From positions 18,287-82,286 of the forward strand of contig CAZIDK010000002.1 in assembly GCA_964537895.1 (NCBI GenBank): DNA of 64,000 bases. Direction: 5' to 3'. Position numbers and translations under genes: made by a program. This document shows, one piece after another, positions 1 to 64,000 of the stretch; within the stretch, counting starts at the first letter, position 1; each line of letters starts with the position of its first letter. This DNA is from an uncultured Gammaproteobacteria bacterium (GTDB taxonomy: Bacteria > Patescibacteriota > Microgenomatia > Levybacterales > UBA12049). Under the pieces are notes generated by a model. That model saw only the letters and a list, made by a program, of their open reading frames with translations, did no database searches and was not told the origin of the DNA.

Positions 1-20
1 CTAGCAACTAGTGGCTAGTT

Positions 21-95
21 TGGTGGACCCGAGAGGTATCGAACCTCTGACCTCTTCAATGTCAATGAAGCGCTCTACCACTGAGCTACGAGTCC
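21..95 (-). tRNA. tRNA-Val (anticodon GAC), encoded CCA
   Basis: Hand-folded cloverleaf on minus strand: acceptor GGACTCG/CGGGTCC, anticodon loop TTGACAT, T-loop TTCGATA, CCA at 21-23. Confidence 0.75.
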
Positions 96-3732: not shown

Positions 3733-3757
3733 GTTTATATTAAGGAATGCCCCGTTT

Positions 3758-3781
3758 TATCCCGCTAAGCGGGACAAGTCG
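3758..3781. repeat. hairpin motif TATCCCGCTNAGCGGGAC..GTCG, copy 2
   Basis: Matches 3033..3055. Confidence 0.5.
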
Positions 3782-3978
3782 GAGTAAACCATAAAAAAAT
3801 CCTAACGTATACATTTGGAAGGCATACCTTAGGATCTGCGAGAATTATAGCATACAACTATAGGTTTGTCAAGTACTTTACCTTGCATACTCTGTTTTCG
3901 CATTTTAAGCACACTTATCTATCTGCAACAGCGTGTTTAGATTACGGATGTATGGCGAAAATTAGTATGCAGGGCAGG

Positions 3979-8804: not shown

Positions 8805-10115
8805 TTATAAAAATGGGTGTGGAACTTTATTTAAACCTGCTTCGTTTTTCTTAGTAAATCCTAGTTTAGGAGGAACATCGTATAATCTTTTACTTCCCAA
8901 AAACTTATATTTTTCATTCAGGTACAAAGGCTGCAACTCTGGAATTAAAGTTCTTATTACAAAAAATCCGGCATTTTTTATTACTTTTGGCGTTATGTCT
9001 TTGTAGATTATGTTCATACCATTGTCAATCAACGATTTTAAAGTTTTCTCCAGTTTATTATCAGATTTCTTTTTCGTGTCTATTCTTATAATATTTTTAT
9101 TCTTCAGCCAAAAATTTAAATGCTCTATCATTTGTGTTGGAAACCACAATAATGCTCTTTGTTCAATGTTCTCTATTTTTATGACTTTTTTAGATTTAGG
9201 ATTTATATAGAAAGATTTATCTCTTATCCAAGATCTTGTCATTAAAGATTCCTCGATTGCTCCTATTATACAATTCTTTGTTTCCCATCCGGCTTTAAGT
9301 CCTAATGAAATAGCTGGGCCTAATCCAGTTTTATCAATAACGAGTGCTCCAAACACCGGAATTCCAATATCCATTGTTAAATCCAAAACAAAAACCTCTA
9401 ACTTATATCGTCCTAAAATATCTAATATTTTATCAATCTTAGTATCGTTTAATGATTTTAGATCTATTCTTGGAGAAGGAAGCTTATTAAGATAACTTAT
9501 CACAAAAGCATCTCTTTCAATCGCTTCACATAGGGCTCTATAGAGAGCTTCATCAAAAGTAAGACCAAACGCTGTGCCAGTTGAATTAATAGGCATTATT
9601 TCAGGTTCCCCATCGATTAAAGAGTGATTAAATGATATTAGCTGAGAAGGAATAAGTATCTTCTTGTTTTTATTTAGAAATACAGCTTCACTCCACGAGA
9701 ATTTGGAGCTATTTCTGATTACAAATTTACTATTTTCTCTCTGTTTCAACTGTCTTACGGAAAATGGGGATATTCTTAGTGGCTTTAAATATTGTCCTAG
9801 TTTACTTATTTCTGTAATTGAACCTTTTGCTACGATTTTAGGTTTATAAATATCTAGAGAATATCTTTCGAGCGCTTCTCCCAAGACTTTTACTAAAGCT
9901 AATTTTTTATCAAAAGAGAATCCACTTGCAATATTAAGATTATCTTTACGCTTACTCTTATATTTTATTCCGTAGTTAAATATCTTGGGCTCATCATTAT
10001 ATTGGGGATCTCTATAAATTCCATTTACTATTATGTTTTCTTTTAAAACAAAATCTGCAATTTTGTCTAAAACAGAACACAATCCATTATTGACTAGTAT
10101 ATTTTTACTACTCAT
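8805..10115 (-). CDS. YcaO-domain cyclodehydratase (SagD-like)
   Basis: GEALERYS N-motif, STGTAFGLTFDEALYRALCEAIERDAF ATP-binding/YcaO signature, Pro-rich C-terminus VPHPFL. Confidence 0.8.
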   Translation of the reverse strand: MSSKNILVNNGLCSVLDKIADFVLKENIIVNGIYRDPQYNDEPKIFNYGIKYKSKRKDNLNIASGFSFDKKLALVKVLGEALERYSLDIYKPKIVAKGSITEISKLGQYLKPLRISPFSVRQLKQRENSKFVIRNSSKFSWSEAVFLNKNKKILIPSQLISFNHSLIDGEPEIMPINSTGTAFGLTFDEALYRALCEAIERDAFVISYLNKLPSPRIDLKSLNDTKIDKILDILGRYKLEVFVLDLTMDIGIPVFGALVIDKTGLGPAISLGLKAGWETKNCIIGAIEESLMTRSWIRDKSFYINPKSKKVIKIENIEQRALLWFPTQMIEHLNFWLKNKNIIRIDTKKKSDNKLEKTLKSLIDNGMNIIYKDITPKVIKNAGFFVIRTLIPELQPLYLNEKYKFLGSKRLYDVPPKLGFTKKNEAGLNKVPHPFL

Positions 10116-38014: not shown

Positions 38015-38215
38015 TTAAAACTTTATGCTAGGACAATTATACAATAAGAGGATGGGTTTATTTGGGTATTTAAGGTGTTTGCCATAAGGCTTCAAAATCC
38101 GAAATTGTGAGCCGTAGCGGGGTCAGGTGGAACCAGATATTCGATTCCCTGATCCTAACTTCCCACAAACTCATTAAACTAGGCTTTACATATTATAACG
38201 GAAAAGTAGCCATAA

Positions 38216-38680
38216 TTGAAAGTAGCGAGGAGGATTCCAGTGTTTAACTCCTCTCTTTACGATGAAACAACTTTTTATAGTGCTTTTTTGAGAGATTTAG
38301 AGACATGCAAAGAGGAAGTTTTTATTGAGAGTCCGTTTATTACTCAAAGAAGGGCTCAACAGTTAATTCCTGTATTTAATAGGCTTTTGTCTAAGGGAAT
38401 AAAAATTTATGTTATGACCAGAGATCCAAAGGAGCACGAAGAAGGTATGGAATATCAGTCAGAAGATACGATAAGAACATTTGAGATTATGGGAGTTCAA
38501 GTCTTGCTATGTGTTGGTAATCATCACAGAAAACTAGCAATCCTTGATAGAAAAATACTTTGGGAAGGAAGTCTTAACATCCTTTCCCAAACACAAAGCC
38601 GGGAAATAATGAGAAGGATTGAAAACAAGGAGCTGACAGAAGAAATGTTTAGTTTTTTGAATTTGAGCAGATTTTTATAA
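38216..38680 (+). CDS. PLD-family single-HKD nuclease, paralog 2
   Basis: NHHRKLAILDRKILWEGSLNILSQ; aligns end-to-end with 6224..6712. Confidence 0.65.
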   Translation: MKVARRIPVFNSSLYDETTFYSAFLRDLETCKEEVFIESPFITQRRAQQLIPVFNRLLSKGIKIYVMTRDPKEHEEGMEYQSEDTIRTFEIMGVQVLLCVGNHHRKLAILDRKILWEGSLNILSQTQSREIMRRIENKELTEEMFSFLNLSRFL

Positions 38681-38683
38681 ATT

Positions 38684-38884
38684 TTGGTATACTGCAGGGA
38701 ACAAACTATGTATAGCGAAGAACAAATACAAAAAATGATCGAAAAGATTAAAAAAATTAAACCGGAAGAAGCTACTAGAGAAAGAGCAATCAAAGTATTA
38801 AATATGTTACCAAAAGTTGCTAACGACATTGCAAAGGCTTTGAAGCAATTAGTTAAAGAGTCGGAAAAGAAACTTTCAAATTAA
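38684..38884 (+). CDS. small charged helical protein
   Basis: 66 aa, 4 nt after the PLD gene. Confidence 0.35.
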   Translation: MVYCREQTMYSEEQIQKMIEKIKKIKPEEATRERAIKVLNMLPKVANDIAKALKQLVKESEKKLSN

Positions 38885-39105
38885 ACAGGTACCACATCCG
38901 AAGATTTTAGTTTTAATACTTTAGCAATTTTAGCCATAACTTTAGATCCCGGACTGTCTATTTCTCCCCGCTCAATCATAGAATAATAATTCGAAGTTAT
39001 ACCTACTTTTTCGGCAACATCAGATTGTTTTAATCCTAAACTTTTCCTTGCATTTTTTAAAGTTTTACCTATTCTTTCTTGAGAATTCACAACGTAATTA
39101 TACAT
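38881..39105 (-). CDS. XRE-family HTH transcriptional regulator
   Basis: LGLKQSDVAEKVGITSNYYSMIERGE Cro/C1-type HTH. Confidence 0.7.
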   Translation of the reverse strand: MYNYVVNSQERIGKTLKNARKSLGLKQSDVAEKVGITSNYYSMIERGEIDSPGSKVMAKIAKVLKLKSSDVVPV

Positions 39106-39311
39106 CCTTTACTTAAAATTTGCTCTATTTTCAGTTTTACAGAATATGCAAAAGGTTTGATACAATACTAATAATGATTGGTTTCTTTAAACAAAAAGAC
39201 CAAAAACCTTTTAGCTACTCCTCAATTGAAATGAGAAAAAATTCCCGAGGTTATTATAAATGGATTGCAGTTATTATTATTTTTATAGCTATCTTATTTA
39301 TTCTCTTCTTT

Positions 39312-40445
39312 TTAAAGTGAGTTAAGAAACTCCTTGATAGTCGTTCCTCGTAAAGCTACCCAAGCAGCAATAAACGTCGTTATGGGAACAGCTAAGATTA
39401 ACGCACTGCTCCCAACAATGCTCTTTATAATCTCCTCCATTGTGGATTCATTATTTAGAATTACCCAGATAGGTAAATGCATTGGATTTATTTCAAAAAA
39501 TATTAGAACAGCCAAAGAAGATCCTGTAAAAGCAAGTATAAGAGTGTTTATTAAAGAAGCAATATGTTCTTTGCCGATATCCATTCCCTTGCTAAACAAC
39601 TCCGATAGTTTTTGCTTTGGATTTTCCTTAACTAAAGTAAATATGGTTATTGACTGGGTAGTAGTTATGTCGTTTAATGCCCCCAAAGTTGCTATAAGTA
39701 TACCTCCCAAGAGTAAGCCTTTAGGATTTATTGAAGTTCCCATTTGTAAATTGTAAATATCTTCACTCCCAAGTCCTGTTGTTTTCATTAAATCTACAAT
39801 TGTTGTTGCAAGCCATCCCGCTATTAAAAATGCTAGAGAAGTACCCAATATCGCAACCGTTGTTTTAAGAGAGATTCCATGGGCAATATACGTAGTAGTA
39901 ACAAGAATAATAAATCCTCCAATAATGCAGGTTTGCAAAGGATCCTGCCCGTGTAATATCTGAGGAATGATCCATAAAATGATAATTGCAAGGCTTACCG
40001 CAAGCCCTATGATCGCCCCAATGCCCTTTTTCCCTCCAATAAAACCGATTAGCAACATAAAAGCAATTAATACTAAGAGTAGAGAATTTAATCTATAAGG
40101 TTCATATATCGCATATTGTGTACCTCCTTTTAAATATTGCTTACTGTTTACAACTACAGTATCTCCAGGATTTATAGTTAGAGAAGTTTTAGGATCGCCG
40201 GACATTTCAATAACCACAGTCTTTCCTTTTTCTTTGCCGTCAAGTAGCTGAACTTTAAATTTTTGGTTTAAATTCTTTTGACCATAAGTTGTTTGTAATT
40301 TTTGACTAAGAATTGAAATTATCTTTCCTTGAATAAAAGATTCTTTAAAGTTTAGATTGCCGGGCACTTGAGCAAAAGTTGAAGAGGCAAACATAAAGGC
40401 AAAAACCAAGAAGGATATTAATATAAAAAGAGTTTTCTTTAACAT
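39312..40445 (-). CDS. YibE/F-family membrane protein
   Basis: Secreted N-terminal domain then about 7 TM helices; GQDPLQTCIIGGF region. Confidence 0.5.
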   Translation of the reverse strand: MLKKTLFILISFLVFAFMFASSTFAQVPGNLNFKESFIQGKIISILSQKLQTTYGQKNLNQKFKVQLLDGKEKGKTVVIEMSGDPKTSLTINPGDTVVVNSKQYLKGGTQYAIYEPYRLNSLLLVLIAFMLLIGFIGGKKGIGAIIGLAVSLAIIILWIIPQILHGQDPLQTCIIGGFIILVTTTYIAHGISLKTTVAILGTSLAFLIAGWLATTIVDLMKTTGLGSEDIYNLQMGTSINPKGLLLGGILIATLGALNDITTTQSITIFTLVKENPKQKLSELFSKGMDIGKEHIASLINTLILAFTGSSLAVLIFFEINPMHLPIWVILNNESTMEEIIKSIVGSSALILAVPITTFIAAWVALRGTTIKEFLNSL

Positions 40446-40555
40446 ATTGAGAATTATATCAAAATTATCAATTACCTAACTAATTACAAAGGAGAAAATA
40501 TTACTACTTGACAGATGCAAATGAGTTGCATATACTATGTGCAAGTGAATTGCAT

Positions 40556-41440
40556 ATGAAAATAGCATTAGCCGGAAAAGGCGGAACAGGAAAAACTACA
40601 GTAACCACTCTTATAACATCTTATTTAGCAAAAGATGCTAAGGTTTTGGCATTTGATATTGATTCTAACGAAAATCTTGCTCACTCTCTTGGTTTTTCAT
40701 CGGAAAGCATTTCAAAATTAGAACGAATAAGAAACTTCTATAACGATATTTTTAACTACACAAAAACGGATTTTGATTGGAAGATTAGAAAATATACTCC
40801 TCAACCCGATGCAAATTATTATTTTTTCAAAAACGGGACTATGGACTCTTTCTTAAAGAAGATAACCATAACTAAAGGCAACGTCTCAGTTGGTCATCTT
40901 GGAACTGTAAGCGAAGAAAATAGGGGCATAGAAAATATGTGCGAATCATATACGCTTATGCGAATTTTCCTTAATCATTTAAAAGAAGACAAAAAAGATT
41001 TTGTAATTGCTGACCTAGCAGCTGGAAATGATTTATTAACACGAGCAACGGTAATGAACATGGATGAAATAATACTTGTTGTTGAACCGGCAAGTAAAAA
41101 CCTTACCGTAGCAAAGGATATTCTAATTTCTCTTGAAAAGCTTTTGTTTACAAGAATTTATATCGTTGTCAACAAGAGTTTTGACGAAAAGGATATTAAG
41201 TTGGTTCAAAAGGAGCTTAAAGTAGATAAGAAATTTATAACAAGAATTCCTTTTTCCAAAGAACTACTAATGCTTGATAATAAAAACGATTTGACTTTTG
41301 ATTCTGCGCCAAAAGAAGTAAGAAAGGAGATTGAAGAGTTGTTAGAAAATATAAAAAGAAATGCTATAGACGAAAAAAAGCTTATAAAAAGAGCCTCTCA
41401 TATCGATGCAAGACTTTTTTCTGACGCTCCCTCTTTATAA
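40556..41440 (+). CDS. ParA/MinD/CooC-family P-loop ATPase
   Basis: Deviant Walker A KGGTGKTT at N-terminus (start set at the internal ATG). Confidence 0.6.
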   Translation: MKIALAGKGGTGKTTVTTLITSYLAKDAKVLAFDIDSNENLAHSLGFSSESISKLERIRNFYNDIFNYTKTDFDWKIRKYTPQPDANYYFFKNGTMDSFLKKITITKGNVSVGHLGTVSEENRGIENMCESYTLMRIFLNHLKEDKKDFVIADLAAGNDLLTRATVMNMDEIILVVEPASKNLTVAKDILISLEKLLFTRIYIVVNKSFDEKDIKLVQKELKVDKKFITRIPFSKELLMLDNKNDLTFDSAPKEVRKEIEELLENIKRNAIDEKKLIKRASHIDARLFSDAPSL

Positions 41441-41442
41441 AT

Positions 41443-42309
41443 ATGAAAGGAATAGTAATTGTAACAGGGGCAAACTTCAGAGAATCCAAAAGGTTATTTA
41501 ATAATACCGATAAGTCACTACTTGTTGAACACGAAGGAAAAAAACTTAAATTCAACGCTGGAGCAGCAACAGCTATCGTTTTAAATCAAGCAGATTACCT
41601 TGTGTATATGACGGGTGCTTCTTTTGAAAACCTGGAAATAATAGCAAAACAACTTAAAGGAGAATTTTACTTTGAAGAAATAGATTTACTAGATAAAAGT
41701 GCTGTTAAAAAACTTGCAGATAACATAAAAAACCTTAAAGAAAAAACTGGACTTGACGTTCATATTGTACATTATGGCGGGGCATCTGAAACTAAAGTTC
41801 CGCTTCCCAGAAATACCATCTATTTGGATCCATACGAAACACCAAGTGAAGCAATTTCACCGATGATCGATTATAACTGCGTTACTTGGCTTAACTTAAT
41901 TCAGGCGCTTAAGGAAGTAACTCAGAGTCAAAAGATAACAAAAAATATTGTTATATCAGCAGTAGCAGCTATAAGAACTGGACGCTTCTTTCTTCTGGAC
42001 GCAATACAAAAAGGAGCAGTGCATTCAATGGCAAGAACCCTTGCAGTAGATTTAACTAAAGAAAATATGTTTATTACAGAAATCATGCCGGGGATTACCG
42101 ATACGGGATTTTATGATACAGATGAAACGTTAGACGCTACAATCCAAATCTCGAAAGAGTACGGATACGAATATCCTAGTAAAGATGACTTGCCAGTACT
42201 TCCTGCACAAAGAATTGCTGATTCAATAAAATTTGTGTTAGATACACCAGCTCATATTAGAGAAATATCCTTAATTCCATTTGGGCAATATCCCCAACTT
42301 GGAGCATAA
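41443..42309 (+). CDS. Rossmann-fold SDR-like protein, catalytic Tyr apparently replaced
   Basis: IVTGAN N-terminus; DAIQK where SDRs have YxxxK. Confidence 0.35.
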   Translation: MKGIVIVTGANFRESKRLFNNTDKSLLVEHEGKKLKFNAGAATAIVLNQADYLVYMTGASFENLEIIAKQLKGEFYFEEIDLLDKSAVKKLADNIKNLKEKTGLDVHIVHYGGASETKVPLPRNTIYLDPYETPSEAISPMIDYNCVTWLNLIQALKEVTQSQKITKNIVISAVAAIRTGRFFLLDAIQKGAVHSMARTLAVDLTKENMFITEIMPGITDTGFYDTDETLDATIQISKEYGYEYPSKDDLPVLPAQRIADSIKFVLDTPAHIREISLIPFGQYPQLGA

Positions 42310-42323
42310 AGGAGGTGAAATAA

Positions 42324-42488
42324 ATGAAATTTTATAACGTTAAGACAAGACAACCAGTAGAAATAGATGACAGTAAAGTAACAGTTGTAACAATGAAAAA
42401 CGGTAAAAAAGCAGCAAAAGCAGAAGACAATGGAGTTGGACTTTTTAAGATATTAAGTAACGAAGATGCAGCGAGACTATCAAAATAG
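42324..42488 (+). CDS. small protein (54 aa)
   Basis: Strong SD AGGAGGTG 6 nt upstream; MKFYNVKTRQPVEIDDSKVTVVTMKNGKKAAKAEDNGVGLFKILSNEDAARLSK; followed by two hairpins. Confidence 0.45.
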   Translation: MKFYNVKTRQPVEIDDSKVTVVTMKNGKKAAKAEDNGVGLFKILSNEDAARLSK

Positions 42489-42577
42489 GACATTTGGCCA
42501 AATGCCTTTGCTCGGCATTTTACACAATAATACTAAAAGCCTTTGAAAAAAGGGCTTTTAGTATGTAAAATACATAT

Positions 42578-43006
42578 ATGAAAACTCACGATTGTAGAAA
42601 TGAACTTAACGACTTCAATTTAAGAGCCACCCCTGCCAGAGTGGCAACCATGAAGTGTTTGGAAACCATTGATAAACCGGTTGATGTAAACTCTATAATT
42701 GATTACCTCAAAACAGAAAATGTAGATGTCGACCCAGCAACAATTTTCAGAATGATGAATTTATTCATGGAAAGGGGTTTAATAAAACAGATTAGATTCC
42801 AAGACGCTATCACCAGGTATGAACTATCTAATAAAGGAGACCACCATCATTTAATTTGCGAGAGCTGCGGCAAAATTGAAGCGATATCCGATACCGTTTT
42901 TCCCATAATGGAAAAATATATTAAGGAAAAAAGTAAGTTTAAAGTTAAAAGCCACTCCCTTGAAGTATTCGGAATTTGTGAGGACTGTCAAAAGCACACA
43001 TCTTGA
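42578..43006 (+). CDS. Fur-family metal-responsive transcriptional regulator
   Basis: HHHLICESCGKIEA...CEDCQ metal-binding motifs. Confidence 0.8.
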   Translation: MKTHDCRNELNDFNLRATPARVATMKCLETIDKPVDVNSIIDYLKTENVDVDPATIFRMMNLFMERGLIKQIRFQDAITRYELSNKGDHHHLICESCGKIEAISDTVFPIMEKYIKEKSKFKVKSHSLEVFGICEDCQKHTS

Positions 43007-43049
43007 GTTGTGGGAAATTATAGATTTCCTACAAAATTTGAAACTAATT

Positions 43050-43667
43050 TTAATTCCCACTTCCCAAAAATACTCTCGGATTTACAGGTAATCCAAATAC
43101 ATTTATTTGAAAATGTAAATGTGGTCCCGTTGACCAACCTGAACTTCCCTCTAAAGCAATAATATCCCCGGGTTTTACTTCTTGTCCCGGATATACAAAT
43201 ATTTTGTTTAAGTGACCGTAGAGTGAAGTTATATTATCTCCATGATCAATAATAATATGTTTTCCGTATCCCCAGAATATTTCTCCTGCATATATTACTT
43301 TACCCTTCATAAAAGGAGTAATCGGATCTCCCTGCAAACCATATGGATTAGCAATATCAATTCCTGTATGAAAGATCTGATAAGGCCAGTCTGATTCTCC
43401 GAATTCAAGAGTAATTACACCTTTAACAGGCCATGTAATCACAGGCTTAATTTCTTTTATCACCTCTCCCGTTAACGGGTCATAAATCTGAATTGTATTT
43501 GTTTTGGAATCAAAAGAGGTTAATGAATCTGAAACTATATTTACTCCAACATTCATTAAAATAATAACGGCAATAATGGGAAGTGAAATTGCTATTAAGA
43601 ATGAAAGGATTACAAGTTTGAGTTCTCTTCTAAAATTCCAGAGATTTATAAATTTAAATATAATCAT
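43050..43667 (-). CDS. M23 family metallopeptidase
   Basis: HTGIDIA (HxxxD) and GPHLHFQI (HxH) motifs. Confidence 0.75.
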   Translation of the reverse strand: MIIFKFINLWNFRRELKLVILSFLIAISLPIIAVIILMNVGVNIVSDSLTSFDSKTNTIQIYDPLTGEVIKEIKPVITWPVKGVITLEFGESDWPYQIFHTGIDIANPYGLQGDPITPFMKGKVIYAGEIFWGYGKHIIIDHGDNITSLYGHLNKIFVYPGQEVKPGDIIALEGSSGWSTGPHLHFQINVFGLPVNPRVFLGSGN

Positions 43668-44926
43668 GCAGAATATATTTCTCTAGGATCTGTTGTAAGT
43701 AGTGGATGTTCTTTGTCGGATGCAACTACTTTTAAAGCAACATGATTCTGATCCGCAATTATTAAAGCCTCTCCTTTGTCGCAGGTTAAAAGAAAATGCT
43801 GTTCATATTCACTTAAATTAAATTCACTGGCAACTTTTTTAATGGTGGTTGTATCCTGTTTCATTAAGATCCTTAAAGAAGACTGCGAAGCAATCGCTCT
43901 TCCGTAGTCTTGAGAAAGAAAATCATTTGCCTGTTGGGAAATAATAGTTACTCCTAAATAGTATTTTCTTGCCCGTCTTGTAAGGCCTGCGATAAATCTT
44001 GCGCTTTCTTCGTGAGCAAGTAATATCCATCCCTCGTCAATTACAAGTATTCTTTTTTGCGGATTTAGTTTTACTTGTGAATTGACAAAGTTTGCAACTA
44101 CCATCATCATAACTTGTCTTAATGATTCGTCTAAATCTTTAATGTCAAAAACAACAAGCCTGTTTGATAGCTCGATATTTGTATGTTCATTAAATACGCT
44201 AGACAGGGAACCCTTAATATATTTCTCAAGTTTTTGGCTTAATTTCTTCTGTTTAAGCTGTTTAAGTGTTTTATAAAAATCTTTAAGTAGCGGATATGTT
44301 TTTTGTTTTGGTTTTCTGCCCCTAGTGTCTTTTTTCTTTTTCGGTTTATAACCGGGGTTTAATAGCCAGCCGAAATTTTTATATGTTTGAATGATTGCCT
44401 TATCAACAATTCCTTTTTCTTCTGCACTTAATCCTCCAATCATAAGAGAGATAATTTCAGTTAAGTCTTGAACATGTTCTGAAAGTTCACTCTCTCCGTT
44501 TTTAAGATTAATAGATAAATCAAAAGGATTAATTTTTTCTTTTGATTTGGTTGATAATTTTATATACGTTCCGTTTACGGAATTAGTTAATTGTTTGTAT
44601 TCCCGTTCCGGGTCAATGACAATTACTTTTGTTTGCTGCATAAGTTGTCTTAATATTTCTACTTTTGCGGTGTAGCTTTTTCCACTTCCGCTTTGTGCAA
44701 AGATTATGCTGTTTGCGTTATTTAAGGAAAACCTGTCAACAATAACAAGCGAGTTATTTGACTTATTAATGCCATACAAAATTCCTGATTCCTGTACCAG
44801 CTCTGATGAAACAAAAGGAAAAGTAAGAGCAGCCGAAGAACTGTCTAAATTTCTTTTTTGGGAAAGTTGGTTTTCTCCTCTTGGTAAAACGGATTGTAAT
44901 CCTTCAAGCTGTTGAAAGCTTTTCAT
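43664..44926 (-). CDS. VirB4/TraC-like ATPase, C-terminal domain only
   Basis: AQSGSGKSY Walker A, VIDEGW Walker B; only 420 aa vs about 800 for a full VirB4. Confidence 0.5.
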   Translation of the reverse strand: MKSFQQLEGLQSVLPRGENQLSQKRNLDSSSAALTFPFVSSELVQESGILYGINKSNNSLVIVDRFSLNNANSIIFAQSGSGKSYTAKVEILRQLMQQTKVIVIDPEREYKQLTNSVNGTYIKLSTKSKEKINPFDLSINLKNGESELSEHVQDLTEIISLMIGGLSAEEKGIVDKAIIQTYKNFGWLLNPGYKPKKKKDTRGRKPKQKTYPLLKDFYKTLKQLKQKKLSQKLEKYIKGSLSSVFNEHTNIELSNRLVVFDIKDLDESLRQVMMMVVANFVNSQVKLNPQKRILVIDEGWILLAHEESARFIAGLTRRARKYYLGVTIISQQANDFLSQDYGRAIASQSSLRILMKQDTTTIKKVASEFNLSEYEQHFLLTCDKGEALIIADQNHVALKVVASDKEHPLLTTDPREIYSA

Positions 44927-45040
44927 ACTCTCTTAGGCAGGTGGACAGAAGCTATAAAATTATTGAGCGAAGTATATCACAAACGTGTTACCGATGTATC
45001 TCATCTTCTGCATGCATTTCAAACCAAATTTTTTGGAGGT

Positions 45041-45430
45041 TTATCTTTCCCAAACTTTATCTTCTGGAGCGAAATCAACTTGATGTTCAGGAATTCCAAT
45101 AGAAATACCATATTCCTTAGCATCTTTGTAAAGCACAGGATTGTTTAAATCAACTTTAAAAATTTTAGCTCTGTAAATTATGTAATGGTATTTATCATTT
45201 TTATAATCGGCGTACCATTTATGTTCTTTGTCCAATGAGTTACTTATTTCATTTGCGATGTCGCCTGCACTTTCTTCGAGAACTTCAACTGTGTCCAATG
45301 TCCATTGTAAAAGCCAAGGAGTCTTATGTTCCGAGGTAACCTTTTCAGTCTTTGTGCTTAATACGTTAACTTTATTTAGAACCGATTTATCATCCAAACT
45401 TTCTTCAATAATTACGCCTTTAAAATTCAT
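45041..45430 (-). CDS. hypothetical protein
   Basis: 129-aa ORF. Confidence 0.4.
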   Translation of the reverse strand: MNFKGVIIEESLDDKSVLNKVNVLSTKTEKVTSEHKTPWLLQWTLDTVEVLEESAGDIANEISNSLDKEHKWYADYKNDKYHYIIYRAKIFKVDLNNPVLYKDAKEYGISIGIPEHQVDFAPEDKVWER

Positions 45431-45590
45431 AACCTAATTATATCATCCGAGTCTGCAAAACCAAATTTTCCGGTGTATTTATCACCATTAATTGTTGTTA
45501 AAACCTAGAGTATTTAGCCCCTTGACAGCTATTCCTATAAGGGATATATTATAAATATAGTTATAATATGAAGCTAAATTCTGCACCATC

Positions 45591-45791
45591 ATGAATCAAA
45601 TAGAATTGATAAATCAGGCTCAAGATAAAGTTAAAAAAGTAGGCAGAAAGGTTAAGCTTGCAATATCAACTTTATCCCCGGAAGAACGATTAGATTCCTT
45701 AGCAAATATCGTTATTGAGCGAATTCTTGAAGAAAACCAAAACCCCAAATTACCAGCAATACCAACTAATAAAGGAGATTTAACCATATGA
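45591..45791 (+). CDS. small protein overlapping the recombinase start (candidate directionality/accessory factor)
   Basis: 66 aa, 4-nt overlap with the recombinase gene. Confidence 0.35.
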   Translation: MNQIELINQAQDKVKKVGRKVKLAISTLSPEERLDSLANIVIERILEENQNPKLPAIPTNKGDLTI

Positions 45792-47512
45792 GTGAACCAT
45801 TATTATTAAATAACGCAGTAGCAGCGATTCGTATATCTTCAACCAAGCAAGGCTTGCAAGGCGATTCCCCACAAGCGCAAAAAGAGCAAATAGAACAATT
45901 TGCTATTGCTCACAATATAAACGTCAAAAAGTTCTTTATTTTTATGGAATCTGCGTCAAAAGAAGTGCAACCTGTGCAAGAGGCTATAGACTATTGTAAG
46001 AGCCCAAAAAACGATATACAGCTATTTATAATCAAATCCATAGATAGATTCACTAGGGGCGGTTCATACCTCTACGATCATCTTAAAATGCAGCTTACCC
46101 GTCATAATGTAAAGCTTATTGATATTTATGGCATTATCAGCAATCAGGAGGTTAATACGCTTGAGCATTTGGGACTTCAATATGATTGGAGCGTCTATTC
46201 TCCTACCAAAAAGTCTGAAATTTTAGAAGCAGAACGAGCTAAAGACGAGATTCGAGATATCTTAAGCAGAATGATAGGTGCTGAAATTAGATACGTTAGA
46301 ATGGGCTACAGAGTCAGACCGGCCCCTTTTGGTTATATGAATGAAAAAATAGATACTCCTCACGGAAGAAGAGTAATTCTAAAGCCAGACACTACGGAAG
46401 CGCCATTAATTATTAAAATGTTTGAACTAAGGACTAAGAAAACCTTAACGGATGAGGAAATTGTCAAAGAGGTTAATAAAATAGGATATAAATCCAGAGT
46501 TCATTTATTAAGAGACGGTAAGGATAAGACAATAGTAATAGGACAAAGGGGCGGTATAAAACTTGATGTAAAACGATACGTAGAATACATTCGAAAACCA
46601 ATTTACGCAGGAATAAACGATGAAAAGTGGACCAATAACGAACCAGTTAAAACAAAATTTCCGGGATTAGTTTCTGTAGAAACGTTTAATCAGGCAAACA
46701 GAGGAAAAGTTGTCCTGTCGGAAGAAAACGGAGGGATAACTATTTATAAAAACATGCCTGAAGAATGGAGACTGAGAAAATCCGTCAAAAATCCTGATTA
46801 TCCTTTTAAGCGATATGTTCTTTGTCCAACTTGCAGATATCCGTTATATGGCAGTGCTTCAAGAGGCAGTAACGGAACACGCTACCCTGCATATCACTGT
46901 AATAAAAGAAATCATTATTTCAGAGTAACCGTAGAAACATTTGAGCAAACTATTAAAAACTTCGTAAGTAAAGTCAGAGTTACGAAGGATGGCGTAGATA
47001 AACTAAAAGAAAGAGTATTAAAAAAATGGCAAGATAATCTAATTAAAGGTCAGCTAGATGTTGAAACTATCGATGAGAAAATTAAAAAATTAGATGGTGA
47101 GAAAACACTAATCGGAAACCAAATACCAAGACTTACATCTGATGAAGGCATTAAGCTAATGGAAGAAAAATTAAGCGAAGTTACAAACGAGATTAAACAA
47201 TTAACTGAAACTAAAACAAAACAAGAAGATTTAAATGTAAATATGGAGATAGTTTTGGCAATAGTTGGGGAATTTCTGGAAAACTTATCGTTTTTATTGC
47301 TAGGAAGCCCTAATCCTCTTAAGAGAGCAGCCTATTTTGGACTTATATTTGAACAGACTCCAACCTATCAAGATCTAATTTCTGGAACTGCTCAATTAGC
47401 TCCCTATTTCGAGCTAATCGATGATGCAGGGTATCCAAACCCCGCTACTGTGAGCCGCCTGAGAGTCGAACTCAGAACCTATTCCTTAAGAGGGAATTGC
47501 TCTGCCAGTTGA
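45788..47512 (+). CDS. large serine recombinase (resolvase/invertase N-domain, recombinase domain, zinc ribbon)
   Basis: AIRISSTKQ catalytic Ser region, SIDRFTRG, CPTCRYP...YHCNKRNH zinc ribbon; last ~20 codons are read through the tRNA-Lys complement. Confidence 0.75.
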   Translation: MSEPLLLNNAVAAIRISSTKQGLQGDSPQAQKEQIEQFAIAHNINVKKFFIFMESASKEVQPVQEAIDYCKSPKNDIQLFIIKSIDRFTRGGSYLYDHLKMQLTRHNVKLIDIYGIISNQEVNTLEHLGLQYDWSVYSPTKKSEILEAERAKDEIRDILSRMIGAEIRYVRMGYRVRPAPFGYMNEKIDTPHGRRVILKPDTTEAPLIIKMFELRTKKTLTDEEIVKEVNKIGYKSRVHLLRDGKDKTIVIGQRGGIKLDVKRYVEYIRKPIYAGINDEKWTNNEPVKTKFPGLVSVETFNQANRGKVVLSEENGGITIYKNMPEEWRLRKSVKNPDYPFKRYVLCPTCRYPLYGSASRGSNGTRYPAYHCNKRNHYFRVTVETFEQTIKNFVSKVRVTKDGVDKLKERVLKKWQDNLIKGQLDVETIDEKIKKLDGEKTLIGNQIPRLTSDEGIKLMEEKLSEVTNEIKQLTETKTKQEDLNVNMEIVLAIVGEFLENLSFLLLGSPNPLKRAAYFGLIFEQTPTYQDLISGTAQLAPYFELIDDAGYPNPATVSRLRVELRTYSLRGNCSAS

Positions 47513-47523
47513 GCTAGCGGCCC
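47451..47523 (-). tRNA. tRNA-Lys (anticodon CTT)
   Basis: Acceptor GGGCCGC/GCGGCTC, anticodon stem ATTCC/GGAAT with loop CTCTTAA, T-loop TTCGACT. Confidence 0.7.
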
Positions 47524-54577: not shown

Positions 54578-55408
54578 ATGGCAATTGAATTAGAAACTTT
54601 TTCATTTAAAAGACATGGAAAATTCCATCATCCTGAAATAAATGGGGTTTCAACAGTTACTGAAAGATATCTAACCCTTCCCTTTTTTAGCGATGTTGGG
54701 TCATATCAAATCACGGAAGGATGGATGTATTCAAGAGCGGAAAAAGCTATCCATGGATATAGAATTCACGGAGCAGTCGACTTTCAAGTTCCTTACGGAA
54801 CGCCTGTAACTGCTCCCTGCGACGGTATTGCCATTTCTTCATATCATTCTTTTCCGTTAAAAGATTCTGACAGAAATATAAAAAAGCTCGAGGGTAAGGA
54901 GTTATATTTTGGTTTAGGATATTTCGTGCAAATTTATGTTGAGCATCTAAATAGATACGTTCAATTGGGACACTTGTCGAAAATAGATGAAACAATTCCT
55001 TTTAGTATGCCAAAACTTGAAGAAGGCACTTGGAATCCTACTAATCACGACTTTAATCCTTCTAATTTAATAGATAGTGGAAAAGCAGTTTTGGTTAAAA
55101 GAGGAGATTTATTGGGTAAAGTCGGATTTTCTGGTTTAAGATTGGGTTACGATGAATATAATGGCGAAGAAAGACCTTTACTGTTAGATACATTGAAATT
55201 TAAAAGTTACGATGAACCTCATTTGCATTTTGAAGAAACAGGAAGAGATGAAAAAGGAAAAAAAGGCTGGCAAAGAGATCCTTATGATATCTATTTGACG
55301 GCAAGAAATTATCCGACTCCTTCAAGACAAAGGATAATGGGAGAAGAGCCCCTTTTTATACTTGGCGAGAATGGTCTTCTTATTTTTGCAAATCAAGTAT
55401 TGAATTAA
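54578..55408 (+). CDS. M23-family metallopeptidase-like protein
   Basis: HGAVDF (HxxxD) and PHLHFEE (HxH). Confidence 0.6.
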   Translation: MAIELETFSFKRHGKFHHPEINGVSTVTERYLTLPFFSDVGSYQITEGWMYSRAEKAIHGYRIHGAVDFQVPYGTPVTAPCDGIAISSYHSFPLKDSDRNIKKLEGKELYFGLGYFVQIYVEHLNRYVQLGHLSKIDETIPFSMPKLEEGTWNPTNHDFNPSNLIDSGKAVLVKRGDLLGKVGFSGLRLGYDEYNGEERPLLLDTLKFKSYDEPHLHFEETGRDEKGKKGWQRDPYDIYLTARNYPTPSRQRIMGEEPLFILGENGLLIFANQVLN

Positions 55409-59829: not shown

Positions 59830-59842
59830 AAATTATTTTTGT

Positions 59843-59854
59843 GAGTCGGACAGC
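59843..59854 (-). repeat. partial copy of the tRNA 3' end found at the window end (att-like remnant)
   Basis: TGAGTCGGACAG vs TGAGCCGGACAG at 63975+. Confidence 0.4.
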
Positions 59855-59946
59855 ACTCACCGAGTATTTCGTTCTGACGAACTCAAGATTCAAGATAAAC
59901 CCTCCTTGCCATTAAAAAATCCCCTTGGCAAAAACCATGGAGATTT

Positions 59947-59961
59947 TTCAGTGAGCCGGAC
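59947..59961 (-). repeat. 15-nt direct repeat of the window-end tRNA 3' end (candidate attL of integrated element)
   Basis: TTCAGTGAGCCGGAC is identical to 63971..63985. Confidence 0.6.
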
Positions 59962-60226
59962 GATAACGACTTCAAACTAATTATTCAACAATATTCCCAA
60001 CTTCAGCACGCTTTTTTAGGGATATATGCCCCCTATAACTAGGTTATGAATATGGAGTAAATTAAGCAACTTTAATACACAATACCTAGCGGACTAATTT
60101 AGCTTGCATGTGAGGCTATTAAATGCTCTAGGAATGGTTTTTATTCAAATTATGGTTATTTCCTAGTCTCATTTTGACTTCAAACTAAAAAAGGAGTATA
60201 AGAAAGTTAGGAAATAAAGAATAAAT

Positions 60227-60895
60227 ATGAAAATTAAGAAAAAACTTAGTAATTTTACCAACCTAAAAGACAAGTTTCTTGTAGGACTATTAGTTATTAC
60301 TGTCTTGTTAATTACAGGCTTATTGGTAAAGAACCAAAGCTTCATCTTAGGAGCTAAAACCGAACAATTACCAATCCCCACGATTGAAGTTTTTACAAAC
60401 ACACCGACGCCGACGCCTGAAACAATCTACAAAAACCAACAGAATACAAATAATTATGTACCCCAATACAATCAACCTACAGCAACGCCTATATCGCAAC
60501 CTACCATTGTTCAAAAAGTACCCGTTATTCTACCTCACAATGGACTTACTTATTACTGCGATCCTAGTAGTGCTAAGGCAGTAGTTGACGCCTCTAATGC
60601 TGTTAAAACTTCGACTGAAGAATATATAAAATGTCAGAGCAGTCAACAAAATTATTCTCAGACTTGTTCCAGTAGTTGTCCAACTGTAAATATCTGCAGC
60701 GACGAAATGGTAAGAACTTCTTACGGTTATTCTAGTTATGATGACTGTTTAACAAAAAGACAAAAGGAAGGCCTGGATTGTATTGACAAATGTTATAACG
60801 ATGGTCTTGCAAAATTAGGACAGCAGGTATGTAATATTGGATCCTCAAATGCAACGAATAGCTTAAACGACCTATTAAATAGATACTGTAGATAA
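60227..60895 (+). CDS. secreted Cys-rich protein with Thr/Pro linker
   Basis: N-terminal TM/signal, TPTPTPE linker, 12 Cys in the C-terminal half. Confidence 0.5.
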   Translation: MKIKKKLSNFTNLKDKFLVGLLVITVLLITGLLVKNQSFILGAKTEQLPIPTIEVFTNTPTPTPETIYKNQQNTNNYVPQYNQPTATPISQPTIVQKVPVILPHNGLTYYCDPSSAKAVVDASNAVKTSTEEYIKCQSSQQNYSQTCSSSCPTVNICSDEMVRTSYGYSSYDDCLTKRQKEGLDCIDKCYNDGLAKLGQQVCNIGSSNATNSLNDLLNRYCR

Positions 60896-61131
60896 TATTG
60901 AATCTTAATCTTATGAAAAAGATTACTCTTAGTTTAATAACCTTGTTCTTGATATTCTCTTTTTCTAAATTGAGGTCAAAAAGTTAAAAAAAGTTAACAT
61001 TTACTAGTTTTCCGTCGCAGTAAAAAAAAGGGGTTTTCTGACACAATAAAAAAGGTCGTATATCTGATGACAATCTTGCGTGCTTGAATCCCCTTGACTT
61101 TTGGTAATAATGTGGTAAAATATTACTTAGT

Positions 61132-61440
61132 ATGACAAATTTAGACGGTTTTCAACCAGAGAAGAAAACAAGGACAACGATTTTTATTGACCCACTAACT
61201 CTAAGACGAGCCAAGGCAAAAGGTGCTCTTGAGGCATTAACCATATCGGAAGTAATTGAAGCTTTATTAAGAGAGTACGGACAAGATCTTTCTCAAACAG
61301 TTACTGCTTCCGAAGTAATACAAAATCGAGTTAATGGCGGAGGGCATGATATTTCAGAGGTTTTTGAAAAAGGTTCAAAACTACCCGTTACAGACCGCTC
61401 TCACGGAGAATTTATAGATTTAAGCAAAAAACAAGGCTAA
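61132..61440 (+). CDS. hypothetical protein (possible ribbon-helix-helix-like N-terminus)
   Basis: 102-aa ORF inside the putative element. Confidence 0.35.
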   Translation: MTNLDGFQPEKKTRTTIFIDPLTLRRAKAKGALEALTISEVIEALLREYGQDLSQTVTASEVIQNRVNGGGHDISEVFEKGSKLPVTDRSHGEFIDLSKKQG

Positions 61441-61541
61441 TTAGGTTAATTTAGGATCACGGTTTGGTGATTGAAATTTATATCACTTCCCGTCAACAGC
61501 ACAGGTAAAAGGCTGTTGGACGGGTTTTTTTTGGCAAAAAT

Positions 61542-61790
61542 ATGAACAACGAAGAAGCTAAACAGGGGGGAGTAAGAGGGAGGCAAGGGTTATACGCCTA
61601 CGCTTCAAAATACTCAAAAGAGGCTATAGACACCTTATATCTACTAATGACTACCTCAAAAAACGAAGGCATCCAACTAGGTGCGGCTAAAGCCCTATTA
61701 AATAAATGCCTACCCGATCTTAGAGCAGCGGAGAATAATATTCCGGAAAGATTACCTGTACCAATCATAGGAGGTTTATCGGCTTTATAA
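61542..61790 (+). CDS. hypothetical protein
   Basis: 82-aa ORF. Confidence 0.35.
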   Translation: MNNEEAKQGGVRGRQGLYAYASKYSKEAIDTLYLLMTTSKNEGIQLGAAKALLNKCLPDLRAAENNIPERLPVPIIGGLSAL

Positions 61791-61809
61791 AAAGGGGAAA
61801 CAAATAAAT

Positions 61810-62337
61810 ATGTTTGAGATTTTAGAAAACCATAATAATTTGAGTAAAGAAGAAGCTATTCGCCAAATCGAGCAAGTCTATCATGCAAGCTATAACCCAA
61901 ACATGGCGGATTTTGATGCTTACGAACAACTCCTAGTTTGTGAGTCTCTTGCGGAAACCGAAGCAGAAGAACTAAAGAGAGATGGAAGAACGAATGAAGA
62001 TGTTTATGTTAAATGGAATGGTAATGATACCTATAAACGAACCGTTAACTTTGAGTTAACTGAAGATAAACTAGATGTTATCACAGAATTAAAAACACTT
62101 ACCTACAAAACCTCGCCTATCTTAGTAGCCGAACTTTTAGAAAAGCTGTTTGTTAACAGAGAAACAAAAGATGGGCATTGGCTTTATATCGCGCAAAATT
62201 GGAACCCAAGAGCAATTAACAGAGTAATCAAATATATGGTTAAGGCTCAAAGTTCTGGGACAAGAACGATAGATAAGCCAGCCGGATTTTTTACATTTTT
62301 AATTAAACGCCGAAAGAGGAGAAGGTTAGGATTGTGA
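61810..62337 (+). CDS. hypothetical protein
   Basis: 175-aa ORF; basic C-terminal tail KRRKRRR. Confidence 0.4.
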   Translation: MFEILENHNNLSKEEAIRQIEQVYHASYNPNMADFDAYEQLLVCESLAETEAEELKRDGRTNEDVYVKWNGNDTYKRTVNFELTEDKLDVITELKTLTYKTSPILVAELLEKLFVNRETKDGHWLYIAQNWNPRAINRVIKYMVKAQSSGTRTIDKPAGFFTFLIKRRKRRRLGL

Positions 62338-62470
62338 CTATACCAGAAGCACATAAGGTTTTAGGACAAGAATATAAAGATACACCGGAGAAAGAAATTG
62401 AAGAATGGATTAATTCAGCAAACGGATTAGCAGAAATATTTATGCAACAGACTTTAAAGAAAGGATTTGA

Positions 62471-64000
62471 CAATGAAGATAAAAAATAGCCATACTATAG
62501 CTGTGATTAGAAAAGCGATAGGATATGTTCGCATATCAACAGAAGACCAATCTCAATTCTCACTAGAAAATCAGGATGATTATATCCGCAAGGAAACAGA
62601 TAGGCAAGAATACGAACTTATAAGGATATTCTCCGATTCCGGTTATAGCGCAAAGACAACAAACAGACCCGGACTTATTGAACTCCTTGAATTTTGCAGA
62701 AAAAATAAAGACACCATCTCTGCCCTATTTATTTACAAATATGATAGGCTTTCCCGTGATACTTATGATTTCTTAGGCATTAAAAAGAAACTATCGGAAT
62801 ATGGGATAAGAGTAATATCCTGCACTGAACCGACTGATGATACTTTTTCAGGGGAGTTTCTACAAACAATACTATCCGCAGCAGCAAAACTTGATAATCA
62901 AATGAGAGGACAAAGAGCATTAGATGGAATGAAAAAAAGATTTGAATCAGGTTGGTATGCCGCAGGAAGACCGCCTCTTGGATATATAAACACTGTTGTT
63001 GAAGGAAGAAAGATTATTGAACGTAATCCAAAGACTTTTGATTTAGTTAAAAGAGCTTGGGAAGAAATGTCAAACGGAACTCAATCTTTATTTACTATTT
63101 CAAAGCTTATGAAAAAATGGGGACTTTCGGTTCACAAACAAACAGTTAATAGAATATTTAGGAACAATTTCTATATTGGGATAATTACGAGCAAAAGATG
63201 GAATTTAGAAAAAAGAGGATTACATAATCAAATGGTAACTGAAGAAGTTTTTTATCGTGTACAGTCAATCCTAGATGGCAGGAGCAATACTGCAAAACCA
63301 AGAGAGAGAAATAATCCTACTTTTCCACTTAGAGGATTCGTAAAATGTGGAGAATGCCTAGCTCCGCTAACCGGAGCATGGGCAAAAGGTTCAACTAAGA
63401 AGTATGCTTATTATTACTGCTCCAAAAGAACACATAAAATAATAAATATTTCTAAGGATACTTTAGAAGAAGAATTTGTAAAACTGTTAAAAAGACTATC
63501 TCCTGCTCCTGAAGTTATAAAACTATTTACTGAACAGGTTAAAGCAAAATGGCATCAAAGATATAAAGAGTTGTATAAACAACAAGATTGGTTAAAAATG
63601 GATATAGAGAAGTTAGAAGAACGGAAGTTAAGCATTGGCAAGAAAAACGCAGACGGTGTTATTCCCGATGATCTATGCAAAGAGCTGTTAGCAAAGGCAG
63701 ATGTTGAGTTAATAGCGAAGAAATCTATTGCGAATGAATCAACTCTAGCTCAAGTTGATATAGATACTTTAACAAACTTTATGAGTGTGTTCTTAAAAGA
63801 CTTATCCAAAGCATGGCTTGATGGCAATCTTGATCAGAGGCAAATCCTAGTTAGTTCGATAATGCCAAAAGGTGTGGTCTTTAAGGATTATGCTTATCAA
63901 ACTAATCAAATAAGTCATTCCTTCCTATTACAGCAAGCTAATCGCAATTCTTCTGCCATAGATGGAACGTTCAGTGAGCCGGACAGGATTCGAACCTGTG
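62471..64000 (+). CDS. large serine recombinase (runs off window; 3' end overlaps a tRNA on the opposite strand)
   Basis: YVRISTEDQ catalytic Ser, DRLSRD, recombinase domain, CGEC...YYYCSKR zinc ribbon; no stop before window end. Confidence 0.8.
63975..64000 (-). tRNA. partial tRNA (3' end: T-arm plus acceptor), identity undetermined
   Basis: Minus strand reads ACAGG-TTCGAAT-CCTGT-CCGGCTC-A; remainder lies beyond the window. Confidence 0.6.

Follow-up and report, generated by a model that had tools for sequence, protein, structure and literature searches.

Integration of mobile DNA at tRNA-gene 3' ends is tied in textbook practice to tyrosine integrases, and insertion at such sites by serine integrases is known but uncommon. 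In the survey of Mageeney et al. (2020; PMC7192596), tRNA or tmRNA genes were used by 44.5% of the elements with a tyrosine integrase versus 4.9% (14/297) of those with a serine integrase, and the latter usage was described as previously unreported and in need of proof. Eight Mycobacterium elements of the AICE (actinomycete integrative and conjugative element) type, in which serine recombinases target a tRNA-Leu gene, were termed rare by Ghinet et al. (2011; PMC3218068), who also cite the small serine recombinase of the phage phiRSM at a tRNA-Ser gene. In Prochlorococcus, a large serine recombinase is present in 27 of the 937 tRNA-island elements reported by Hackl et al. (bioRxiv 10.1101/2020.12.28.424599). 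Here we describe element B, found in a 64-kb stretch of DNA (henceforth the window), which very probably represents an integrative element of 4,023 bp (59951/59957 to 63973) placed at the extreme 3' end of a tRNA-Lys(UUU) gene by its own large serine integrase in a Patescibacteria (Microgenomates-type) host. It is part of a large and hitherto unreported group of such insertions.

The Mycobacterium AICEs are alike in that a large serine recombinase puts a small element into a tRNA gene; however, they belong to another phylum, have distant integrases and bear actinomycete conjugation and replication modules, and the paper on them describes neither an integrase open reading frame (ORF) running into the tRNA, nor clade-wide use of many isoacceptors, nor a mimic of the T-loop. 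The Islander/TIGER tyrosine-integrase islands resemble element B in their integration at tRNA 3' ends, the regeneration of the gene by element sequence, the tRNA-proximal integrase and the presence of fossil tRNA fragments, but their enzymes belong to an unrelated family and the core of element B is only 6 bp. Likewise, the tycheposons and cryptic elements of Prochlorococcus are small cargo-bearing elements at tRNA genes of streamlined genomes, some of them satellite-like with a small terminase; yet they are cyanobacterial and overwhelmingly dependent on tyrosine recombinases, and we detected no genes in common with element B.

Attachment sites that lie within a gene have precedents of their own. 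The archaeal virus SSV1 has its attP (the attachment site on the mobile DNA) inside the tyrosine integrase gene, which is split in two by integration, and in the integration-dependent immunity of mycobacteriophages attP lies in the repressor gene, which integration truncates. Element B would be comparable in having attP in one of its genes, the product of which is altered by integration, but would exchange only the last 26 codons of its integrase. As for the enzyme itself, the Listeria phages A118/U153 and the lactococcal phage TP901-1 insert at protein-coding genes or in intergenic sites and are not known to use tRNA genes. Their integrases display the same three domains as that of element B, to which they are at most 28.5% identical. 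The rule that the zinc-ribbon motif lies 5 bp further out in attP than in attB, the host attachment site (Rutherford et al., 2013), may extend to element B, the predicted attP of which overlaps the stop region of the integrase gene. Full-text literature searches with partial journal coverage returned no description of the Patescibacteria clade reported below, and none of a T-loop mimic or of an integrase ORF that extends across attP.

Boundaries of element B at tRNA-Lys(UUU)

Positions past 64000 were taken from L001, a 38-kb Logan contig of SRR13723396 that we reached via contigs encoding the exact 175-aa protein of element B (L numbers are our designations for contigs and loci). It is identical to the window over 12,191/12,191 shared bases and runs 8 kb further. 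The sites at the two ends of element B, with the strand where one applies, are as follows:

59841-59853: outer fossil copy of the tRNA-Lys 3' end, GTGAGTCGGACAG, matching the tRNA end at 12/13 positions
59854-59946: fossil spacer of ~93 nt, homologous to spacers abutting an intact tRNA-Lys in the relatives L168 and L172 and absent from the relative L167
59947-59961: attL core (left junction), a 15-bp direct repeat TTCAGTGAGCCGGAC, within which GTGAGC occupies 59951-59956
59957-60042, plus strand: element-side (P') arm of attP, containing a block nearly identical in the sister elements L166 and L175 and a T-loop look-alike TTCAAAC at 59971-59977
63970-63984: attR core (right junction), the second copy of TTCAGTGAGCCGGAC, inside the integrase ORF
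63974-64046 (63974-64000 within the window), minus strand: intact tRNA-Lys(UUU) gene (ARAGORN; 73.8 bits with the Rfam tRNA model)
63989-63995: complement of the T-loop of this tRNA, TTCGAAC

A preliminary description of the window had recognised the 15-mer at two sites, the first with the correct coordinate, the second one base too high (63971-63985 instead of 63970-63984). The 15-mer is not common in the window: it occurs only twice, even with up to two mismatches allowed, against a chance expectation of 0.04, and 0/100 dinucleotide-preserving shuffles of the window gave two or more matches. Its uniqueness and the shuffles rule out a chance origin of the repeat. The minus-strand tRNA that had been seen to run off the window is completed by L001 to an intact tRNA-Lys(UUU), recovered by both ARAGORN and Rfam, and the 15-bp repeat comprises the last 11 nt of the ARAGORN-called gene plus 4 nt outside it. 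Direct repeats of the tRNA 3' end and an intact tRNA at one end, the hallmarks of a tRNA-integrated island, are thus both present. By base composition element B is inconspicuous, with 35.2% GC versus 37-38% in the flanks.

The corresponding sites of relatives were located through close homologs of the flanking IMPDH protein, followed by a comparison of neighbourhoods. L168 (IMPDH 92% identical) displays the IMPDH gene, the outer copy, a spacer of ~105 nt, an intact tRNA-Lys, a mechanosensitive-channel gene and a tRNA-Glu, with no element B; point differences aside, exactly the 4,023 bp between the 15-mers of the window are missing. The flanks of L167 (IMPDH 95% identical) are like those of L168, with the IMPDH gene to the left and the mechanosensitive-channel gene and tRNA-Glu to the right. 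Its junction reads GTCTAA-AAATTATTTTT-GTGAGCCGGACAGGATTCG, the tRNA-Lys(UUU) starting 11 nt past the IMPDH stop, i.e. a pristine site. The spacer-plus-tRNA state recurs in L172 (IMPDH 89%), which belongs to a lineage with another T-stem. L168 and L167 thereby demonstrate a presence/absence polymorphism at this site among related genomes, and we conclude that element B was inserted, because L168 shares the flanks and the tRNA but is without exactly the unit bounded by the repeats.

Three sister elements with related integrases were found in other hosts:

L086: integrase 84% identical, 8,829 bp, at tRNA-Lys(UUU)
L175: integrase 82% identical, 4,006 bp, at tRNA-Lys(UUU)
L166: integrase 80% identical, 4,227 bp, at tRNA-Lys(UUU)

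The host tRNAs of the window and of these three have four differing T-stems (CGGACAGG, CGTACAGG, CGGCTGGG and CGGGTGGG), which means that the insertions are separate. To the right of the core the element arm is nearly invariant across the four, with GACTTCAAACTAATTATTCAACAATATTCCCAACTTCA identical at 38/38 positions between the window and L086. The host arms to the left of the core in L175 and L166 are unrelated to the spacer of the window. Therefore, the left end of element B is the 15-mer, and the outer copy is excluded. The identity between attL and attR extends over 15, 8, 8 and 8 bp in the four elements: the 15 bp are particular to the element B copy, and the only part common to all is GTGAGC, which on the tRNA strand represents G69-C70-U71-C72-A73 plus one base. 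Hence, the crossover would fall in the last nucleotides of the tRNA gene. The proposal made from the window, namely a tRNA-targeted integrative element with attL, attR and a large serine integrase, is borne out by the intact tRNA, by the unoccupied L168 and pristine L167 sites and by the sister elements in three other hosts.

Two of the contigs, L174 and L175, are made of element alone. The start of L175 consists of 22 nt of flank plus the 8-nt core, i.e. 30 nt. Logan contigs are built with a k = 31 assembly graph, such that 30 nt equals k-1; this hints at a branch at the core, with the occupied and other junctions coexisting in that sample.

Comparison with the pristine site also accounts for the degenerate third copy of the repeat. 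In the window the 11-nt flank AAATTATTTTT precedes GTGAGTCGGACAG, and in L167 the same AAATTATTTTT runs straight into GTGAGCCGGACAGG, which is the tRNA; therefore, the outer copy is the original tRNA end, displaced from its gene. The preliminary description was right that such a copy exists, but the sequence given there, TGAGTCGGACAG, starts at 59842 and not at 59843, and the copy is not an attachment site of element B, being the displaced tRNA end that is also present in relatives lacking the element. Alignments of the window, L086, L168 and L172 show that the right end of the fossil spacer serves as the host-side (B) arm of the attL of element B. The site is therefore layered: an old event left the outer copy and the spacer, and element B is a younger insertion.

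The integrase, its attachment sites and its clade

The gene at the right end of element B continues into the tRNA gene:

62473-64035 (62473-64000 within the window), plus strand: large serine recombinase of 520 aa, with a TGA stop at 64033-64035 seen in L001

The protein has a resolvase-type catalytic domain (PF00239, E = 1.3e-30, residues 15-160) together with the recombinase and zinc-ribbon domains (PF07508, 29.5 bits with a cut-off of 21.1; PF13408, 37.2 bits with a cut-off of 25.3). R20, S22 and Q26 fall in invariant columns of a 35-sequence alignment, and the invariant residues of the catalytic region are kept. It matches the integrase family phrog_95 (8.7e-80) and the sequence of the A118 integrase C-terminal-domain structure 4kis. 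Among catalogued phage integrases, those of the A118/U153 type come closest, with ~28% identity (maximum 28.5%), and IMG/VR yielded no integrase relative above 30% identity. The ORF overlaps the tRNA gene by 62 nt, its last 17 codons coming from the tRNA complement. Read-through of this kind had been noted for both recombinases of the window, that of element B and that of a second element, A (see below). Both ORFs do overlap tRNA-Lys genes, and the read-through turns out to be a habit of the whole integrase clade.

We recovered 126 homologs of the integrase at E <= 1e-20, of which those with source names are from Patescibacteria, and many end in peptides encoded by the T-arm complement in one of three frames (for example GIRT, GFEP/GIEP and ESNP). 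For a selection independent of tRNA, 80 clade loci were gathered from species-representative genomes via two N-terminal/central protein motifs. An antisense tRNA overlies the integrase 3' end in 63/80 of them; this amounts to 63 of the 70 with enough sequence, the other 10 ending within 200 nt of the match, and the anticodons used across the clade number 23. Seven loci with sufficient room gave no tRNA call. One of these, L164, shows a group I intron (Rfam, 105.8 bits; 3646-3873, minus strand) directly at the integrase 3' end, and is probably a case of an intron-containing tRNA gene missed by ARAGORN. Exact direct repeats of at least 10 nt in the 63 loci rise clearly above chance (at least 12 nt) only in L086 and L104.

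When the ends of element B are joined as a circle, the integrase ORF gains 26 codons up to a TAG at 60040-60042, the tail starting from 59962. The circle form would thus be a protein of 530 aa ending in ...FSEPDDNDFKLIIQQYSQLQHAFLGIYAPYN, and the integrated form is one of 520 aa ending in ...FSEPDRIRTCGQELKRLLLYR. The tail frame across attP is open in 4/4 elements, and the stop occurs at the same codon position in the window, L175 and L166 (TAG/TGA). Several of the differences between elements in the tail are synonymous, and L086 ceases to be similar roughly where the tail ORF ends. Moreover, two more distant homologs without a tRNA behind them have similar ends (...QIEPIILDFEKIRQAF... and ...QIEPIIQFYYGLYQ...). 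We infer from these comparisons that the tail would be a real part of the episomal enzyme that is lost on integration. Homologous integrases not followed by a tRNA are seen on L180 (1-6242) and L179 (1-5334). The former, the source of one of these two tails, is a 6.2-kb contig with a Prim-Pol/DnaB-type replicase, the integrase 3' end of which is like the tRNA end with 5 extra bases before GAACC. Both are possible episomal (attP) forms; no terminal overlaps showing circularity were found in L174-L180.

The proposed course of events is the following. The excised form would be a circle, with attP lying within the 3' end of the integrase gene (predicted junction GGAACGTTCAGTGAGCCGGACGATAACGACTTC). 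Integrase dimers would bind attP and the tRNA end, which would act as attB (predicted GGAGATTTTTCAGTGAGCCGGACAGGATTCGAACC), and strand exchange would take place at a 2-bp crossover in GTGAGC. Integration would then replace the last 26 codons of the integrase (...DFKLIIQQYSQLQHAF...) by 16 codons from the tRNA complement, turning the 530-aa form into the 520-aa form. For recognition, the zinc-ribbon domain of the integrase would read TTCGAAC on the host side and its look-alike TTCAAAC 5 bp further out on the element side.

This last step builds on a constant offset between the two motifs. Counted from the base after GTGAGC, the T-loop TTCGAAC occupies +10 to +16 on the tRNA side and TTCAAAC occupies +15 to +21 on the element side in 4/4 elements. 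If the outer B' arms are slid against the P' arms, +5 is the best of 14 shifts in 4/4 elements, with agreement at 8-9/16 positions against 0-5 for most shifts. For the A118-type integrase, Rutherford et al. (2013) found the motif of the zinc-ribbon domain 5 bp nearer to the centre in attB than in attP (~11-19 vs 16-24), and a crossover inside GTGAGC puts both motifs of element B within these ranges. An unrelated, A-type integrase, that of L174, presents the same offset: its element arm carries GTGGAAC at +15 to +21, and its tRNA carries GTCGAAC at +10 to +16. A clade-wide scan of the 63 loci (8 kb each) recovered the +5 spacing in 2 loci (L086, and L092 at a tRNA-His) versus 0.05 expected, and 3 matches spread over ten other spacings. 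T-loop reading by the zinc-ribbon domain is, on these sequence comparisons, plausible but not established.

The boundaries of element B, the identity of its tRNA, the insertion polymorphism, the class of the enzyme and the clade-wide association with tRNA are firm. A good deal more speculative, and to be held only tentatively, is the idea that these integrases might represent an undescribed Patescibacteria-wide clade specialised on tRNA ends, which would use the T-loop as the zinc-ribbon motif with a copy 5 bp further out in attP, move among at least 23 tRNA species and employ the tail swap as a sensor of the integration state. If this were true, the swap of a C-terminal helix could bias direction or stability. 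Serine integrases are the main tools for the insertion of large DNA, and the rules by which they choose natural targets are still being worked out. A clade with about nine-tenths of its members at tRNA ends would supply natural variants for the study of how attachment-site recognition shifts to new targets, since the half-site on the host side is conserved universally, and would open integration sites present in every bacterium.

Gene content and probable mobility of element B

As the preliminary description had it, small genes and a large serine recombinase lie between the repeats; we find five ORFs (222, 102, 82, 175 and 51 aa) besides the 520-aa recombinase, and an independent gene caller agrees. 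The features upstream of the integrase are these:

60227-60895, plus strand: variable cargo gene; its 222-aa product combines an N-terminal membrane anchor and a Pro/Thr-rich linker with a 10-cysteine domain
61094-61121: promoter-like site TTGACT-16-TAAAAT with TG, ahead of the 102-aa gene
61132-61440, plus strand: gene for a 102-aa protein, possibly DNA-binding; the equivalent position in L175 is taken by a PF12728 HTH_17 protein (31% identity, E = 0.006)
61490-61533: hairpin and T-run after the 102-aa gene
61542-61790, plus strand: gene with an 82-aa product, of which conserved versions occur in L174 (82%) and L175 (73%); weak small-terminase match (phrog_2538, E = 0.015)
61810-62337, plus strand: gene for a 175-aa backbone protein, all-helical with a basic tail at the end
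62334-62489, plus strand: gene with a 51-aa product, its final 17 nt shared with the start of the integrase gene

The 222-aa protein has 38 representative homologs among 1.84 billion sequences, and a 93.7% identical copy lies in L174 beside an A-type integrase. The L175 counterpart combines the same anchor with a different Cys-rich domain, which suggests domain swapping in the payload; this second domain type is also seen in L166 and L086. Cys-rich genes occur at 60227-60895 in the window, 300-998 in L175, 835-1659 in L166, 3818-4552 in L086 and 230-898 in L174, and each encodes a membrane-anchored protein in which a Pro/Thr-rich linker and 10-12 cysteines are present, with two ectodomain types in all. 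The recurring payload is, as predicted from these architectures, a membrane-anchored, surface-exposed Cys-rich protein with exchangeable ectodomains.

The 175-aa protein has homologs in L086, L146, L174, L175, L176 and L177, with 45 in the database, and occurs with either integrase type; its AlphaFold model (pLDDT, the predicted local distance difference test, 82) gave no convincing fold match. The 51-aa protein is conserved in L086 (76%), L175 (80%) and L166 (59%), and corresponds to the C-terminal half of a ~110-aa protein (hhalign 96.9%, E = 1.4e-10), the gene for which lies immediately upstream of the integrase in 48 clade loci. As a small protein retained beside a serine integrase, it is our best candidate for an excision (directionality) factor. 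The partner gene in L166 (2711-2863) has an in-frame stop, and that copy may be inactive.

Searches of element B with Pfam, PHROG, NCBIfam and PADLOC recovered no match to replication, packaging, conjugation or defence families. Besides the integrase, no capsid, portal, large terminase, tail or lysis gene was found with Pfam or PHROG, and a relaxase and a type IV coupling protein are absent. The comparison of the cargo with viral and plasmid collections that had been suggested for this element (50,697 phage records plus plasmids) returned no DNA match and no cargo-protein match. Upstream of the integrase (6 kb), most clade loci (L093-L165) encode a ~865-aa type IV coupling protein with TrwB/TraG domains (37 loci), with a Replic_Relax protein in 35 loci, a DUF2958 protein in 12 and an ArdC-like protein in 4. 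This pattern of domains suggests that conjugative or mobilizable integrative elements might be common in Patescibacteria.

Several observations weigh against the account of element B that we favour. Neither the excised circle nor the attP junction was found in the available contigs. All five contigs (5/5) with the flanking IMPDH or the 175-aa gene are occupied, with no empty site in the element's own population, and the one metagenome scan for the P' block returned only the attL form of an L166-type element. The dyad symmetry of the reconstructed attP is weak (10-12/24 positions), and the conservation of the tail could reflect a DNA-level function of the attachment site instead of translation. 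The +5 signal is itself modest, with the shifts +4 and -2 reaching 6-8 of 16 positions. Attachment sites resembling attL were detected in only 2/63 clade loci, the other 61 having none within 8 kb, which is probably due to larger elements. Finally, no function could be assigned to the cargo genes, for which Pfam, PHROG, NCBIfam, PADLOC and the PDB sequences gave nothing usable. Contig breaks at position 64031 of the window (L002 and L003) were discarded as a sign of excision, as they coincide with a single base (64001, G vs A) at which the tRNA differs from that of co-occurring relatives.

The boundaries themselves could be drawn differently, with the true element extending from the outer copy to attR over ~4.13 kb and the 15-mer at 59947 being internal to it. 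In favour of this, the pristine L167 junction is matched exactly by the outer copy together with the 11 nt to its left, and the spacer is also found with the related element in L086. Nevertheless, in L168 and L172, which lack the element, the outer copy and spacer run directly up to an intact tRNA, and the sequence left of the core in L175 and L166 is unrelated to the spacer while that to the right is conserved; these two findings rule out the outer copy as the attL of element B. Moreover, the window and L086 show poor conservation of what would be the element arm beside the outer copy, and we consider the longer element very improbable. Scarcely better is the prospect that element B is an immobile, decayed island, its integrase inactive and its inheritance vertical only. 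The want of an empty site or circle among the contigs of its own population, the absence of transfer genes and the older fossils at the same site would fit such a remnant. However, the 15-bp repeats are perfect and the integrase ORF is unbroken, with no domain or invariant residue lost. Integrases 80-84% identical are present in hosts with compensatory T-stem changes, which implies independent insertions, and a 93.7% identical cargo gene occurs beside a different integrase in another sample.

If element B is mobile, as we favour, transfer between cells would most likely take place via a helper or by DNA uptake. One conceivable form of this is a phage satellite that excises and is packaged in the capsids of a helper phage via the small-terminase-like protein. 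The size of ~4 kb and the existence of element-only contigs would agree with it, as would the weak match of the 82-aa protein to a small-terminase PHROG and the PF03592 Terminase_2 protein encoded by L176, which shares the 175-aa gene. Yet that match is below any reliable threshold, there is no capsid, portal or other packaging gene in element B, and it shows no similarity to catalogued phages at the DNA or protein level, no close relative in IMG/VR and no known helper; a satellite is hence rather unlikely. A little less doubtful, though still only a tentative possibility, is a stripped-down integrative mobilizable element or integrative plasmid, which might replicate briefly or be mobilised by the conjugation-type machinery of larger relatives. 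The coupling, Replic_Relax, DUF2958 and ArdC-like proteins of most clade loci speak for it, as does the homolog on L180 with its Prim-Pol/DnaB replicase and no tRNA after the integrase. More generally, gene exchange in Patescibacteria is poorly known, and these loci document among their mobile elements both 4-kb forms with a swappable surface-protein cargo and larger, conjugation-type relatives.

Other insertions at the site and element A

The fossil that precedes element B spans 59841-59946 in the window, 7544-7661 in L168, 10425-10541 in L172 and 543-655 in L086, with a spacer of ~93-118 nt. It is homologous over three or four host lineages, yet missing from the closest relative, L167. The minus strand of the fossil holds a T-loop-like GAATCTTGAG, and what survives here may be either an element in decay or a non-autonomous miniature element.

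Other insertions have struck the same tRNA gene. L167 has, at 8132-8447, an 86-aa GIY-YIG ORF (minus strand) inserted at the 5' side of its tRNA-Lys, after which the 5' part of the tRNA is duplicated and broken by a 17-nt hairpin; this insert implies that the opposite end of the tRNA is a target for mobile elements of a second kind. In L169 the spacer and the tRNA-Lys are separated by an insert of 0.75 kb (9123-9900), which has one ORF of 196 aa and lacks an integrase. There, the tRNA-Lys site is inverted relative to IMPDH, and the junction ...ACGTTCTCCTTCA|GTGAGCC resembles a remnant of an integrase 3' end.

The second recombinase of the window, that of element A, is a protein of 574 aa (45788-47512) which overlaps a tRNA-Lys(CUU) at 47450-47523. 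The view that the two recombinases are different proteins of distinct elements is upheld, as they are 22% identical. A candidate left boundary of element A is GTGAGCCG at 38107, a match to the end of tRNA-Lys(CUU) at 47450; behind it GTGGAAC occupies +15..21, the offset that it also has in the element arm of L174. The 8-mer alone is expected ~0.3 times in the 22 kb searched, such that this boundary rests on the motif offset, and it suggests a putative element A of ~9.3 kb spanning ~38107-47449. A further small indel of the window, at 54578-55408, consists of a 276-aa ORF with no Pfam match that lies between a ParE toxin gene and uvrA and is absent there in L167.

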